Positions 25,228 through 30,219 of a DNA stretch of 64,000 nucleotides are shown here, one piece after another; position 1 is the stretch's first letter, and every line of letters starts with the position of its first letter. A program made the translations under genes and the position numbers. Source of the DNA: a virus. Taxonomy: Duplodnaviria; Caudoviricetes. The notes under the pieces are model-generated. The model worked only from the letters and a program-made list of their open reading frames with translations. It searched no databases and was not told the origin of the DNA. The stretch is from positions 1 to 64,000 of IMG/VR virus record IMGVR_UViG_2872728642_000001. The stretch is one strand, 5' to 3'.

Positions 25228-26514
25228 TCAGTAGACCGGCTGCAGCAGCGGCAGCCAGGCCGCTTGCGTGGTGTGCAGGCCATACCTGGCAGCGTCCAGC
25301 GCGTGATCGTCCAATTTCACCGGGACGTCATCGCCCTTCTCAGCCTTCTTGTCGTCCCACGCGTACGAGCCGACCTCGTCGAGGAACCCCGACACCGAGC
25401 TATGCACCCGCAGGTGGTCAGCGCCGAGCAGGTTGGACACGGTGCGGATACCGTCGTTGACGGAGTTGTCCCCCATCGTCGGGGTGAAGCCGTCGCGCTG
25501 GAGCTGCGTGATGAACGACGCGGCGGACGGGTCCACCACCACCCACTGCGGCCGTACCCCGCGGGTGCCAGGGCCATAGGTGTCGGGGATGTTGTCCAGC
25601 CACGCGCCGAGCTTCTGGCTGTACTCGGCGTCGGTGAGTTGCTTCCGCTCGGCGCGGGAGTCCCAGCGGAACTCGCTGGCGAGGTAGATGCGCCGCTGCC
25701 CCTGGTCGTCGGGGGTGGACACGCCGATGAGGATGGCGTCGAACGGATTGACGGTGCCATAGTCAACGCCCAAGGCCAGCCACCGCTCCATGGGCGGCAA
25801 CTCGGCGACGACGTGCCGGTCCGGGTCGAACATGTCGTAGATCGCGCCCTCGGCCATGACCCAGCGGCCCTCAATGAACCGCTTGTACCAAAGCCCGGTG
25901 TACTCGGCCTTGAGCGCCTTGACGTACGCCGGATCCAACGCCGTGTTGTCGTCCAACCGGAAGTGCCAATGCCGCAGGTCAAGCTCATACTTCCGGTCGA
26001 GAAACTGCCGCTTCAACCAGTGGTTCGGAGCATCGGGATTTGTCGTCCCAAAGAGTTTGGCGCCCGTGACGCTGAGCCGGGCCAAGAGCTGGTCCCAGAA
26101 CTCCCGCTCGATCAGCGTGATCTCATCGACGTACGCCCCAGCGCAGGTCATACCCCGCAGCCGGTTCTCCGACCGGGCGTCGTTCGACGAGATGATCTCG
26201 ATACGCCGCCCGAGGATGTTCGCCGTGGGAGCACCCCGGGTGTAGATGATCCGCCGCGCGATCGGGCCGGTGATCGCCGGGTCCTGCAGCACGTCAAAGA
26301 CGTTACGGGCGATGGTGTCGCTCGTCTTGCCCACGATCACCAACGAGCCCCCGCGCGGCGCGTTGGCGACGTACATAACCCACCGCAGCAGCGAGGCGAT
26401 CGTCTTGCCCGACCGGATCGCCCCGCTCCAGATGTTCAAGCGCGCCGTGGACTCGCCGATCGACCTCAACTGCTTAGGGGAAAGGTTCAGCGGCGTCGGC
26501 GCCGGCGTGCTCAC
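25228..26514 (-). CDS. terL: Terminase large subunit
   Basis: Walker A GAIRSGKT, Walker B YVDE, TTNPD coupling motif, nuclease GVDYG...DHALDA.RY. GTG overlaps the terS stop. Confidence 0.92.
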   Translation of the reverse strand: MSTPAPTPLNLSPKQLRSIGESTARLNIWSGAIRSGKTIASLLRWVMYVANAPRGGSLVIVGKTSDTIARNVFDVLQDPAITGPIARRIIYTRGAPTANILGRRIEIISSNDARSENRLRGMTCAGAYVDEITLIEREFWDQLLARLSVTGAKLFGTTNPDAPNHWLKRQFLDRKYELDLRHWHFRLDDNTALDPAYVKALKAEYTGLWYKRFIEGRWVMAEGAIYDMFDPDRHVVAELPPMERWLALGVDYGTVNPFDAILIGVSTPDDQGQRRIYLASEFRWDSRAERKQLTDAEYSQKLGAWLDNIPDTYGPGTRGVRPQWVVVDPSAASFITQLQRDGFTPTMGDNSVNDGIRTVSNLLGADHLRVHSSVSGFLDEVGSYAWDDKKAEKGDDVPVKLDDHALDAARYGLHTTQAAWLPLLQPVY

Positions 26515-26996
26515 AGGCCGTCCCCCGACTCGATCTCGCCGATCACCTCGGCCTCGACGATGCTGTCCGTGTCGGGGTCGGGGATGGCGTGCTTCTGCTG
26601 GATCTGGATCAGCAGGTTGCCCAGCAGCGACGCCATGTCGCCATCCGCGATGCCGTTGCGGTTGATCAGGTCCAGGCCCAGCAGAGTCGATCGCCGGTTG
26701 ATGCACTTCAGCGCCGTCTCGCAGGCCTGAACCTCGCCCTTGACTACCTTCGGCCACAGCGACGCCATGATGCGGTCGAGCCGGTCGATCTCCAGCTTGA
26801 GAAGCTGCTCGCTGGCCATCTGCTCCTGCTTGGCCGCCTTCTGCAGCGCCCGGTCGATGTCCTTCGACACCGAGGCCGCGCCCGAGTAGCCCAGCCGATC
26901 AGCGATGACCGTGGGAGACACCCCAGCGATCCGCATCTGCACGGCCTGGTAGCGCCGCTGGGAGATCTCGACCTGACGGGCCTTGCTGACGACCAT
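26511..26996 (-). CDS. terS: Terminase small subunit (HTH)
   Basis: N-terminal HTH (RIAGVSPTVIADRLGY), helical body, AGGAG RBS, coupled to terL. Confidence 0.7.
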   Translation of the reverse strand: MVVSKARQVEISQRRYQAVQMRIAGVSPTVIADRLGYSGAASVSKDIDRALQKAAKQEQMASEQLLKLEIDRLDRIMASLWPKVVKGEVQACETALKCINRRSTLLGLDLINRNGIADGDMASLLGNLLIQIQQKHAIPDPDTDSIVEAEVIGEIESGDGL

Positions 26997-27040
26997 GAGG
27001 GCAGCTCCTGATCTACTACGCTTCTCGGGTGCGGATGCGG

Positions 27041-27409
27041 ATGCTGACCGTCCGGCAGCCATGGGCGGCGTTGCTCGTCACGGGCATCAAGGACGTGGAG
27101 AACCGGAGCTGGGTCACGCCGTATCGGGGCAGGCTCCTGATCCATGCGGGCCTCAAGACCGACGCGGAAGGCTTCGAGCTGATGGAGGAGCTGGGCGTCG
27201 CCCTCGACGGGCCGCTGCTGCGCGGCGCGATCGTCGGGTCGGTGAACCTCGTCGAGATCCGCCAGGACAGCACCTCGCCATGGGCCCGCCCGGGAGAGAA
27301 TCACTGGCTGGTCACTGACGCGCGACCAGCGGTCACGCCGATGGCCGCTGTCGGCGCGCTCGGGCTACGGCCGGCTCCGGCCGGTTGGACGAAGGCTTTC
27401 GCGGCCTAG
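27041..27409 (+). CDS. ASCH-domain protein
   Basis: LTVRQPWA..L..GIKDVENR...YRGRLLIHA and GAIVGSV.L motifs. Alternative starts at 27029 and 27035. Confidence 0.85.
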   Translation: MLTVRQPWAALLVTGIKDVENRSWVTPYRGRLLIHAGLKTDAEGFELMEELGVALDGPLLRGAIVGSVNLVEIRQDSTSPWARPGENHWLVTDARPAVTPMAAVGALGLRPAPAGWTKAFAA

Positions 27410-28488
27410 CGCGGCGCCACGTACTCGAACGACACGACGCCGAGACGGCGCGGGTCGAGCGTCTGCGCGTGCATCCACTGGTGCTTGGAGCGGGTGCCGA
27501 GCTTCTTCTGGCCCTGGATCATCCGCCACCGCGGCGATCCGCTCCGGTAGGCGATCAGCGCCGGATGGCTGGACACCGATCGGTAGCGGAATCCCTGCTC
27601 GTACAGCCGCTGCCCCATCCACTCGGAGAATCGGACGCCGATACCGAGCCCCTGATAGTCCGGCAAGACCACCAACCGGTGCTCCATCTTCAGGTTCCGC
27701 GTCGCGGGGTGCTGGAAGTGGCGGTAAGCCAGGAACGCGACCGGCTCGCCGTCGATGAACCCGGCGAACTTCTTGCTGGAGCGGTGAAGCTCCGTGCTCA
27801 GATAGTGATGGCGTGCGAAGACGGGCCAGAGCTGCCCATCGACCGGCCGGATTTCGAGCCGGAGCACGGGCCGGGGTTGAACCGACCTCCACTCGAACGA
27901 GCCCGTCGAGACGTCCAGCACCCAATCCGGCTGCAGCCACTCCAGCACGTCGTAATGGCATGTCACCGCAACGAACTGGCGGTCGCTGCGCCGTACGGTC
28001 TTCTGGATCGTGTGGCTAGCGACCCGCGCGACCTGGCGGTCCACGACGCTCGTGAACTCGTCGATGACGACCAGTTCTCCCGACTCGGCCAGGGCCCGAG
28101 CGATCGTTGCCCGGAACGCTTCCCCGTTGGACAGGGTCCGGTACGGCCGGAGCCACGCCGGCGGGGAGGACAGGCCGACCGCGCCGAGGAGCGCCACGAT
28201 GTCCTTGATGGACATGTCCGCCGGGAAGTCGTCCACCAGCGACCGGTCATCGGACCAGGTGTGCGGGCTGACGATGTGGTCGGGCCACAGATGCCGCGCG
28301 ATACTGGTCTTCCCGGCTCCCGAGGGGCCGACGATCAGGCCGACGCTCCACGGCCGTTCCTCGATCGGCAGGTCCATCGCCCAGGAATTGCTCAGCCGCT
28401 CCTCCACGGGCACGTCGAACAGGCCCTGGATCTGGAGGACGCGGGCGGTCCGGTGGACCGGTGCCGACACGGTGATCTCGGCTCGCAC
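27406..28488 (-). CDS. ABC-type ATPase fused to a GNAT (Mom-like) acetyltransferase
   Basis: Walker A GPSGAGKT, signature LSNGE, Walker B IDEF, H-loop TCH; FARHHYL and HRLVVLPDYQGLGIG acetyl-CoA motif. Confidence 0.82.
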   Translation of the reverse strand: MRAEITVSAPVHRTARVLQIQGLFDVPVEERLSNSWAMDLPIEERPWSVGLIVGPSGAGKTSIARHLWPDHIVSPHTWSDDRSLVDDFPADMSIKDIVALLGAVGLSSPPAWLRPYRTLSNGEAFRATIARALAESGELVVIDEFTSVVDRQVARVASHTIQKTVRRSDRQFVAVTCHYDVLEWLQPDWVLDVSTGSFEWRSVQPRPVLRLEIRPVDGQLWPVFARHHYLSTELHRSSKKFAGFIDGEPVAFLAYRHFQHPATRNLKMEHRLVVLPDYQGLGIGVRFSEWMGQRLYEQGFRYRSVSSHPALIAYRSGSPRWRMIQGQKKLGTRSKHQWMHAQTLDPRRLGVVSFEYVAPR

Positions 28489-28522
28489 AGCACGACCTTC
28501 CAAGGGGTAGCGGGCGGCGGGG

Positions 28523-29164
28523 TTACATCAGGGCGCGGGCGCTCCAGCCCTGACCGGCGAGCTGGTTGAGGAGCTGCACCTGCTGCGCTTCGCTGTCGCA
28601 GGTGACCACCACGCCCCAGACGACGGGCCGCGTATGGGTCTCGGCGTCGCCCGGTTCGGGCAACTCCTCCTCGTCGTCGGTGCCAGCCTGGTCGGCGCGG
28701 CCACCGCCCGGAGCCGGAGCGCGGTCGGGGGAAAGCGCCACCGCGTTGTCGGCGGCGATGGCGTCGGCCAGGTCGTCGAGATCCTGCTCCGTCCAGCCGG
28801 TGCCGTCGAGGTCGTCGAGGCTGCGCAGCAGCTCGGCAAGGGCCTGGTCGTCGTACCCGCCGATCTCGGCGGTGCGGTTGTCGGCGAGGAGGATGCGCAG
28901 CGCGGCGGCGTCGTCCACGTCGAGGATCAGCGCGGGCACCTGGCCCAGACCCTTGGCCTTCGCGCCCCGCCAGCGGTGCTCACCGGCGATGATCCGCATC
29001 CGGGACTTCTGGACCAGGATCGTGCCGTAGAAGCCGTTCTTCTCGATCGACTTGGCGATCACGTCCACGTCGCCCTGGTGCGGGTTGTCCGGGTGCGGTT
29101 CGAGATCGGCGACCGGCACCATGCGGTAGGTCTGGGAAACGATGGCGGGCATGGACGCGCTCAC
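28523..29164 (-). CDS. ParB/Srx-domain protein
   Basis: DL.PHP.NP, SI...GF...ILV, IIAGEHRW.GA, ILLADNRTAE. Confidence 0.85.
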   Translation of the reverse strand: MSASMPAIVSQTYRMVPVADLEPHPDNPHQGDVDVIAKSIEKNGFYGTILVQKSRMRIIAGEHRWRGAKAKGLGQVPALILDVDDAAALRILLADNRTAEIGGYDDQALAELLRSLDDLDGTGWTEQDLDDLADAIAADNAVALSPDRAPAPGGGRADQAGTDDEEELPEPGDAETHTRPVVWGVVVTCDSEAQQVQLLNQLAGQGWSARALM

Positions 29165-30219
29165 CCGCCTTCCTCGGCCCGAGGCCGGTAGCCGTTCCGG
29201 GTCCGCATCTGCGACATCTTCGCGCCAAGCGCGATCAGCGCGGCGACCTGCCACGTGCCCTTCTCAACCACCTCGTCATCGACCTCGACGGACCACGAGT
29301 CGATCGAGCGGCCCTCCCGGTACGGGATGCCGGGGGTGGCCGTCCACTGCACCGACCAGGACAGGCGGTCGCGCCACCGCAGCCGCGGCCGGCCGAGTCG
29401 TTCCCGCTGAAGCTGCAGACGCACCTCGTGTTGATCGCCCTCGGGCATCCGCACGACGCCCACCTGCTCGTCGCCGACCGGCTCGTAGCTGTACCGCTTG
29501 GGCCCAAACAGGCGCTCCATCAGGTCGAAGCTGGCGTAACCCTGCTGCCACCACGGGGCGGCGCTGTCCCAGTATCCGCTGCGGCCCCAGAGAGCCCACC
29601 GGTACTGCCACTCGCCGATGGCCAGGCGGACCTCGCGCGACTCATATCCGGTCGGGTTGAGTCGGCGCTGCACCCACCTGCCGTATCCCTCGGTGTGCAC
29701 GTAGATGGCCAGCAGTCGGCCGAGCCGCAGGTGTGCGTCCAGCATGTGATCGCTGCCTGCGTTGCCGACCTCGAACCCGATCGAGAAGCCGGGAAGAGCT
29801 CGACTGCCGACGACGACCTGTCCACCGATGGCGCCCCGCGGGCTTTCCGGATACGGGCCGGGCTTGCCCTTGTCGGCATCGTGGACGGGCGCGGTGCGTA
29901 GTCCGAGCATCGCCATCCACGCGTCGGCCGCCAGTACCCGTGTGAGCGGGATCCACGGCCCGCTGTACGGGTCGCCCACCTGGTACTTCGCGGGGTCGAG
30001 CGACCCTTGCGGGCTGGGCCGGACTCCGCACCGGTCGCAGACGATCCAGCGGGCCGCGTGCAGGCCGGGCTCGCACGGGCCATAGCCGTCCACGACCGGC
30101 CGGTGGCCGCGCAGGCGGCAGATGAGCATGAGGCGGGGCAGGTCCGACAGCCACCACCCGCGATCGACGAGTGATTGGCTGTCGTCCTCTGCCTTGTAGT
30201 TGACGCTGTGCCAGCGCAC
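29161..30219 (-). CDS. Hypothetical protein (352 aa, Trp/Arg-rich)
   Basis: Long ORF with GTGA overlap onto parB. Confidence 0.6.
   Translation of the reverse strand: MRWHSVNYKAEDDSQSLVDRGWWLSDLPRLMLICRLRGHRPVVDGYGPCEPGLHAARWIVCDRCGVRPSPQGSLDPAKYQVGDPYSGPWIPLTRVLAADAWMAMLGLRTAPVHDADKGKPGPYPESPRGAIGGQVVVGSRALPGFSIGFEVGNAGSDHMLDAHLRLGRLLAIYVHTEGYGRWVQRRLNPTGYESREVRLAIGEWQYRWALWGRSGYWDSAAPWWQQGYASFDLMERLFGPKRYSYEPVGDEQVGVVRMPEGDQHEVRLQLQRERLGRPRLRWRDRLSWSVQWTATPGIPYREGRSIDSWSVEVDDEVVEKGTWQVAALIALGAKMSQMRTRNGYRPRAEEGG

Follow-up and report, generated by a model that had tools for sequence, protein, structure and literature searches.

Genes of the module and their arrangement

The window analysed here is a stretch of 64,000 nucleotides (positions 1 to 64,000 of the IMG/VR virus record IMGVR_UViG_2872728642_000001; Duplodnaviria, Caudoviricetes), and we examined a module of three genes in it that encode a ParB-like protein, a fusion of an ABC-type ATPase with a GNAT acyltransferase (hereafter AG) and an ASCH protein. 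The window is a prophage region with 67% GC in a large actinomycete genome of 13.8 Mb and four contigs (C2:6.47–6.53 Mb), where the module is present in a single copy; the nearest database relatives of its proteins come from Nonomuraea. We mapped the open reading frames (ORFs) with a filter on GC content at third codon positions (GC3), and between 1.3 and 30.2 kb of the window almost every well-supported ORF was found on the minus strand. The order of transcription on that strand is a gene for a 352-aa protein, parB, AG, terS and terL.

The parB-like gene (28523..29164, minus strand) encodes a ParB/Srx N-terminal NTP-binding domain, followed by an acidic linker and a short C-terminal domain (PF02195, 1.6e-12; phrog_723, 5e-42). 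AG comprises 365 aa (27406–28503, minus strand): the ABC-type ATPase half covers residues ~1–200 (27904..28503; PF00005, 1.6e-7) and the GNAT half residues ~201–365 plus the stop codon (27406..27903; PF00583, 9e-6; also PF13508). The ASCH gene (27029..27409, plus strand; 126 aa; PF04266, 4.8e-6; phrog_3193, 1e-35) is inverted within the late operon, and in this minus-strand run of ~29 kb no other opposite-strand ORF combines a strong coding signal with a family match. Alternative starts are possible for AG (28488; the database cluster representative has 360 aa), for ParB (ATG 29152) and for ASCH (ATG 27035 or 27041). GC3 was 0.88–0.89 for the parB, AG and ASCH ORFs alike, all three had clear family matches and their gene order was found again in diverged phages; thus, the three ORFs are more than a product of chance.

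The ASCH and AG genes converge on a single CTAG (27406..27409, read from the sequence on both strands), in which the two stop codons interlock: positions 27400–27409 read cgcggcctag, the ASCH stop is the TAG at 27407–27409 and the stop of the GNAT half is the complement of the CTA at 27406–27408. At the other end, the start codons of ASCH and terS are about 40 (38–44) bp apart; therefore, transcription that continues from parB and AG into terS crosses ASCH in antisense. The layout given in an earlier note on this DNA (parB, ATPase-GNAT and terS in this order, the inverted ASCH gene and the CTAG interlock) was all seen in the sequence. A scan for promoters and terminators and a search for inverted repeats around the module gave nothing above the shuffled expectation.

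The ABC-ATPase/GNAT fusion protein and its family

AG matched phrog_11143 with an E-value of 3.5e-104 over residues 9–363, i.e. over its full length, and it shared 36% identity with its homologue in Tenacibaculum phage pT24 (tblastn, 2e-52). In an alignment with 49 diverse homologues (35–94% identity), the invariant residues of the ATPase half were the Walker A motif (G59–K65), the signature motif (L124-S125-x-G127), the Walker B motif (D148-E149) and H183, and those of the GNAT half were H233-Y234, R276 and the Q284-G285-x-G287 of the coenzyme A (CoA)-binding motif A. Judged by these motifs, both halves look catalytically competent. The isoelectric point (pI) of AG is 9.7.

The family comprises 707 clusters at 50% identity (E<=1e-30) and was present in 69 cultured phage records, among them phages of Gordonia, Arthrobacter, Streptococcus, Lactococcus, Oenococcus, Porphyromonas, Burkholderia, Aeromonas, Leptospira and Tenacibaculum. 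Its hosts are Actinobacteria, Firmicutes, Bacteroidetes, Proteobacteria and spirochaetes, and it includes prophages of S. pyogenes. A phylum sample of 400 genomes gave no further AG match at 1e-30 among the best five candidates per genome, which shows rarity at most. The ABC ATPase-GNAT family has been predicted to acyl-modify a DNA base (Iyer, Zhang, Burroughs and Aravind, NAR 2013, as cited in PMC7824862, with pT24 as an example). The window copy shares the ABC-then-GNAT architecture and the ParB association with that system, and it has no family-level difference from it. The idea of an acylation module is therefore a 2013 prediction that the earlier note re-derived, and the window itself adds one more member to the family.

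The AlphaFold2 model of the whole AG had a mean predicted local distance difference test (pLDDT) score of 92.5. A Foldseek search with this model returned only the ABC nucleotide-binding domains of transporters and gave no matches for the GNAT half, so the GNAT domain was modelled alone. The resulting model (pLDDT 89) has a standard GNAT fold, with Z-scores of 14–15 to RimI, Naa50 and other GNATs; RimI, Naa50 and the IAA acetyltransferase stood level at the top of the structure searches, which gives no clue to the substrate.

Three assignments of the protein or the module were considered and rejected. Membership in the TmcA/NAT10 group was rejected on the basis of the Pfam domains, which were ABC_tran and Acetyltransf_1/7 only, with no helicase module, GNAT_acetyltr_2 or tRNA-binding domain; NAT10 appeared in a search of PDB sequences with the GNAT-domain profile solely as a 28-residue match to motif A (E 0.04–0.1), which is not meaningful; this search returned motif-A matches only. 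The Mom family was rejected as well, since an hhalign comparison of the GNAT-domain profile with Mu Mom gave a probability of 0.14% (E 0.41) and there was no match to a Mom PHROG. Finally, PADLOC gave only partial ATPase matches (mad3) for the module, so by sequence it falls outside the known defence systems.

Some homologues depart from the arrangement of the window copy. One of them (P0180, 715 aa) carries an intein, with a Hint domain and a LAGLIDADG homing endonuclease, within its ATPase half, and P0153 and P0261 may hold similar insertions. The ATPase and the GNAT often occur as split ORFs in phages of Firmicutes.

The ParB-like protein

The only domain detected in the ParB of the window at E<=0.01 was ParB_N. 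The protein is acidic (pI 4.3) and conserves the motifs N.R, SI..G, GH.R and ADN; its C-terminal domain of ~30 aa is common to the ParB-ABC-GNAT fusion proteins described below. The Pfam domain search detected no helix-turn-helix (HTH) domain, and no ParA gene is adjacent. A canonical partition ParB was thus rejected, as the protein has no HTH parS-binding domain and no ParA partner, and its TIGR00180 score was 38.9 bits against a cut-off of 58.45.

The link between this protein and AG recurs across the family. In ~29 of the 40 IMG/VR loci that we compared (labelled L below, as are further loci), the ORF directly 5' of AG encodes a ParB, and 11 of the 150 cluster representatives are in-frame, single-chain ParB-ABC-GNAT proteins. 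ParB folds in phages are often fused to DNA methyltransferases, and for a short phage ParB of reduced architecture, activation of a post-replicative thymine dioxygenase has been demonstrated, specifically on double-stranded DNA (dsDNA; PMC13229309). In the 5mYOX176/ParB176 system (PNAS 2026), the ParB is likewise a short phage protein with an NTP-binding and a C-terminal domain and no obvious DNA-binding domain; its gene adjoins that of an enzyme that modifies DNA after replication, often close to the terminase. The partner there is a dioxygenase, whereas here it is the ATPase-GNAT, for which activation by ParB is proposed by analogy. It is this ParB link, together with the activation of a dioxygenase on dsDNA, that best argues for DNA as the substrate of AG.

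The ASCH protein

The ASCH protein (pI 9.5) carries the octapeptide GIKDVENR at residues 19–26, which fits the GxKxxExR pattern of the GKER type through G19, K21, E24 and R26. K21, E24, R26 and W28 are invariant in the ASCH proteins linked to AG. The nearest relative among solved structures is the ASCH domain of TRIP4 (2e-10). A weaker match to TthASCH (1wk2; query residues 6–42 against chain residues 8–44) would place K21, E24 and R26 on its K23, E26 and R28, and we infer this correspondence from the sequence alignment. The YqfB type (GKTR, GxKxxTxR) was rejected, as the fourth motif position, a Thr in that type, holds Glu24 and no YqfB match appeared among the solved structures at E<=1.

In a 2026 preprint that is not peer reviewed, all 19 of the 19 ASCH proteins tested removed N4-acetylcytidine (ac4C) from tRNA. 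The GKER-type TthASCH, EOLA1 and the TRIP4 ASCH domain were among them, and the Lys and Glu of the motif were essential. Since GKER-type proteins remove ac4C with these essential residues, an amidohydrolase (eraser) and a pure reader are, by analogy, equally plausible roles for the ASCH protein. The earlier note had cautioned that the motif is ASC-1-like rather than YqfB-like; the description is right, as Glu24 and the TRIP4 match indicate, but the concern behind it is weakened by the preprint, in which GKER-type ASCH proteins including that of TRIP4 remove ac4C.

These data also bear on an RNA target, mainly tRNA. AG would then be a functional analogue of TmcA acting on host or phage tRNA or rRNA, for example in escape from anticodon nucleases, and ASCH would be a tRNA deacylase that resets the mark. 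TmcA pairs an ATPase with a GNAT to make ac4C (PMC13219725), every ASCH protein in the preprint cleared ac4C from tRNA, and tRNA genes lie nearby in the Rhodococcus/Gordonia phage Jace. We nevertheless regard an RNA target as very doubtful: the ATPase of AG is of the ABC type and the protein lacks the TmcA helicase, GNAT_acetyltr_2 and any tRNA-binding domain, its constant partner has a ParB fold, which in the known phage cases accompanies DNA-modifying enzymes, and the module occupies a late position beside the terminase.

Linkage and orientation of ASCH across relatives

An ASCH gene of the window's subfamily was found within 10 kb of AG in 11 of the 40 loci (8 of 34 after dereplication), compared with a background of 144 in 50,697 phage records (0.28%). 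The enrichment is significant (binomial p 7e-14) and holds with the background raised 20-fold (5e-4). The earlier note had tied its proposal to a correlation between ASCH and the operon, and on these figures (8/34 vs 0.28%) ASCH is strongly correlated with AG loci. Conversely, of 82 ASCH loci, 14 have AG. A home-made ParB hidden Markov model matched 47 of the same 82 loci, a figure that is soft because the Pfam check of 10 sampled loci confirmed ParB_N or a ParB-associated partner (methyltransferase, DUF4417) in only 5, with ParB_N itself in 3.

Prophage 315.4 of S. pyogenes (L126:5492–7496, SpyM3_1236 to SpyM3_1233) has, in this order, ParB_N, an ABC ATPase, a GNAT (as a separate or under-annotated ORF), ASCH and the terminase. 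Its ASCH protein belongs to a different subfamily that the window ASCH profile does not detect, yet it has the G-x-K-x-x-E-x-R motif. The ATPase of this prophage carries an ABC transporter annotation. In cellular GNAT-EVE operons, an ASCH gene is nearly always present and an ATPase often (PMC7641849).

In the AG tree, the ASCH-linked loci concentrate in one subclade; L022 is the one case from the other major clade. Because about three quarters of the AG loci and most of one whole clade are without it, ASCH is a genuine but optional partner of AG. The tail-to-tail overlap between the two genes is also present in L002–L005, L013, L022, L080, L094/095 and L111. ASCH lies on the same strand in L119, a sister of L111, where it starts 4 nt downstream, and likewise in L010–L012 and L046, and it is 13 kb away in phage LE3. 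As the orientation differs between sister lineages, the antisense arrangement is a refinement of particular lineages at most.

These differences raise the question of an ASCH gene with a life of its own, that is, an independent lysogeny or early gene that landed in a recombination-prone junction and acts as a reader or hydrolase for the modified nucleic acids of other phages or of the host, the overlap with AG having no regulatory meaning. ASCH is indeed the lone well-supported opposite-strand ORF of the late run, its orientation and distance vary among sister lineages (convergent in L111, same-strand at 4 nt in L119, 13 kb in LE3), most AG loci do without it, and ASCH proteins of the same type stand beside ParB-methyltransferase and ParB-DUF4417 genes in the absence of AG. 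Against this stand the size of the enrichment beside AG, its repetition over deep branches and two ASCH subfamilies, and the same GNAT-ASCH pairing in the GNAT-EVE operons. We judge this independence to be rather unlikely; it is compatible with DNA acylation by AG.

The AG-free phages mentioned here include three in which an ASCH gene of the window's subfamily lies a few kb from genes for a ParB-methyltransferase, an N6/N4 methylase or a ParB-DUF4417 protein (L101:5658–7076, L082:12695–14173 and L064:15235–16353).

Accessory enzymes and packaging context

Directly after AG in the window come ASCH and terS, with no donor-synthesis gene alongside. Several relatives have additional enzymes at this position. 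In Jace, two genes (gp87–gp88, L001:6110–7221) lie between AG and ASCH: gp87 is an aspartate 1-decarboxylase (PanD, 2e-33), and gp88 is a truncated protein similar to CoA-transferase family III (2.2e-8), with a weak PDB match to an acyl-CoA racemase and a GenBank annotation as hypothetical. An orthologue of gp88 with 59% identity occupies the same position in another locus (L046:8576–9475). From its sequence, this pair of PanD and CoA-transferase-like protein suggests a donor of the beta-alanyl-CoA type. In metagenomic phages, the gene directly downstream of AG encodes an Amidoligase_2 protein (L011:11019–12107) or a short-chain dehydrogenase (SDR; L114:14429–15592). In Burkholderia phage phiE255 (gp29–gp30, L125:8010–9742), AG comes behind the tail-fibre genes, at the place that mom occupies in Mu, and is followed by a formyltransferase gene, with no ParB detected nearby. 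A conserved core combined with variable donor-making or tailoring enzymes looks, by analogy, like the organisation of DNA hypermodification clusters. This pattern points to acyl-CoA donors that may differ between phages, and "acetylation" is perhaps too narrow a term for the reaction.

Terminase genes follow AG within 2.6 kb in many loci, with at least 11 TerL and 5 TerS among 108 neighbours. Two single continuous ORFs join AG to the terminase: an AG-TerL protein of 856 aa (P0183, L129:817–3387) and an AG-TerS-like protein of 570 aa (P0240, L130:4001–5713), each from one contig and possibly an assembly or frameshift artefact. The proximity to the terminase, as positional evidence together with these two single-contig fusions, fits late expression ahead of packaging.

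The same context could be read in terms of a protein target. AG would in that case be a protein acetyltransferase that works with the packaging or late machinery and modifies the terminase, the portal, an RNA polymerase or a defence protein, with ParB and the ATPase as regulators and ASCH not mechanistically tied to it. The GNAT-only model is nearest to protein N-acetyltransferases of the RimI and Naa50 type, the TerL and TerS genes lie close downstream in many loci or are fused to AG on the two contigs, and acetylation of host proteins by phage GNATs has precedent (Rac; PMC7824862). Structural likeness among GNATs gives no substrate, however, and a protein target leaves the ParB fusions, the acyl-donor enzymes (PanD, CoA-transferase-like, amidoligase, formyltransferase) and the enrichment of ASCH hard to explain; moreover, AG is away from the terminase in phiE255, PX29 and pT24. 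We consider modification of a protein improbable.

Proposed function of the module and comparison with known systems

The module most likely serves nucleic-acid acylation from within the late operon, with phage DNA as the target. We lean, if only somewhat, towards a GNAT that is driven by ATP, assisted by ParB and directed at the bases of phage DNA, which it would acylate; ASCH would be its cognate hydrolase or reader. From the observed domain identities, intact motifs, family membership, gene linkage and fusions we infer a substrate, an acyl group, a role for ATP and for ParB, and an activity and timing for ASCH, as follows. The GNAT half would transfer an acyl group from an acyl-CoA to the exocyclic amine of a base. 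As no donor-synthesis gene adjoins AG in the window's prophage, the donor there would be an acyl-CoA of the host, for example acetyl-CoA. The fused ABC ATPase may form an ATP-bound dimer and power the engaging or deforming of the duplex, and the acidic, HTH-less ParB-like protein may be its nucleotide-dependent activator or loader, as in the ParB-dependent phage thymine dioxygenases. The basic GKER-type ASCH protein would recognise the same acylated base and would probably hydrolyse it, resetting incoming or off-target acylation (of RNA, nucleotides or host DNA). Writer and eraser would not peak together in this prophage, because ASCH is transcribed against the late operon.

The core idea of the earlier note, namely acylation of phage DNA with ASCH tied in, matches the published prediction and is supported by the adjacency and fusions of ParB, the enrichment of ASCH and the acyl-CoA-type accessory genes of relatives, but its acetyl group may be too narrow, as these accessory genes point to other acyl groups.

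Several points weigh against DNA acylation by this module. A literature search found no demonstrated modified base and no experimental test for any phage with this module. In Foldseek, the ATPase half resembles the nucleotide-binding domains of transporters and not DNA-acting ABC proteins, while the GNAT fold is nearest to the protein N-alpha-acetyltransferases RimI and Naa50, with no special likeness to NAT10/TmcA or Mom. Some members lack a ParB nearby (L028, L029, L035–L037, L039 and phiE255), and ASCH is missing from about three quarters of the AG loci, including most of one whole AG clade. Finally, the deacetylase data on ASCH come from a preprint and concern RNA and nucleosides, not DNA.

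Among the known systems, dsDNA has been proven as a GNAT substrate for Mom (PMC13219725). Mu Mom and the predicted activity of AG are alike in that a late GNAT-fold enzyme acts on an exocyclic amine of phage DNA, in the case of Mom evading restriction, and the AG of phiE255 lies at a Mom-like right end. Mom itself aminoacylates N6 of adenine in dsDNA using Gly-tRNA and is a single domain with no ATPase or ParB. AG has no sequence relationship to Mom beyond the fold, it keeps the CoA-type motif A and its CoA-transferase-like neighbours suggest an acyl-CoA donor.

TmcA/NAT10 combined with YqfB or a GKER-type ASCH shares another part of the logic, namely ATP-coupled acylation of a base by a GNAT, opposed by an ASCH amidohydrolase with an essential Lys and Glu/Thr. 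The module differs from TmcA/NAT10-YqfB in its ABC-type ATPase, the absence of a tRNA-binding domain, its ASC-1/TthASCH-like GKER-type ASCH protein and its predicted DNA substrate. The (PIN)-GNAT-EVE operons (Bell et al. 2020, PMC7641849) contain the same trio of GNAT, ATPase (AAA_17) and ASCH, and were likewise proposed to acetylate a DNA base. They differ from the module in that they are cellular and defence- or toxin-antitoxin-like, with the GNAT fused to EVE/PIN, another class of ATPase and no ParB or terminase context.

A bolder version of DNA acylation is that AG writes and the GKER-type ASCH erases one N-acyl mark on DNA, which would make them the first true writer/eraser pair of this kind in any virus. 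The acyl group would vary by phage (acetyl here, beta-alanyl-type where PanD and the CoA-transferase-like gene are present), and in lineages such as this one the convergent overlap would serve as a transcriptional toggle that keeps the eraser silent for as long as the late operon adds the mark, ahead of packaging. We think this full version unlikely.

If DNA acylation by AG is true, the module would represent a new class of natural DNA modification, in which bases are N-acylated from acyl-CoA by an ATP-driven GNAT, and it would give phage ParB proteins a second role as enzyme activators; with ASCH included, there would also be an enzyme that erases a mark on DNA. The module is found with different accessory genes in several cultivable phages, from which different adducts would be expected: Jace (PanD and CoA-transferase-like), phiE255 (formyltransferase), LE3, EastWest and P335.

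Neighbouring genes

Upstream of parB lies the gene for the 352-aa protein (29161–30219, minus strand), which is rich in Trp and Arg and whose stop codon overlaps the GTG start of parB. It had no match in Pfam, PHROGs, NCBIfam or PADLOC and no similarity to Jace gp84. We dropped it as a part of the module, as it was not found in any of the 40 loci, including L002–L004, in which AG is 90–96% identical.

Downstream of AG on the minus strand, terS occupies positions 26511..26996 within an ORF of 26511–27062 and is recognised by a phrog_645-type small terminase match and an HTH; its likely start is the ATG at 26996, with an AGGAG 8 nt ahead of it. It is followed by terL (25228..26757, minus strand; PF03237, 2.6e-10; phrog_2, 2.6e-44), and terS and terL are both conserved in L002–L004.

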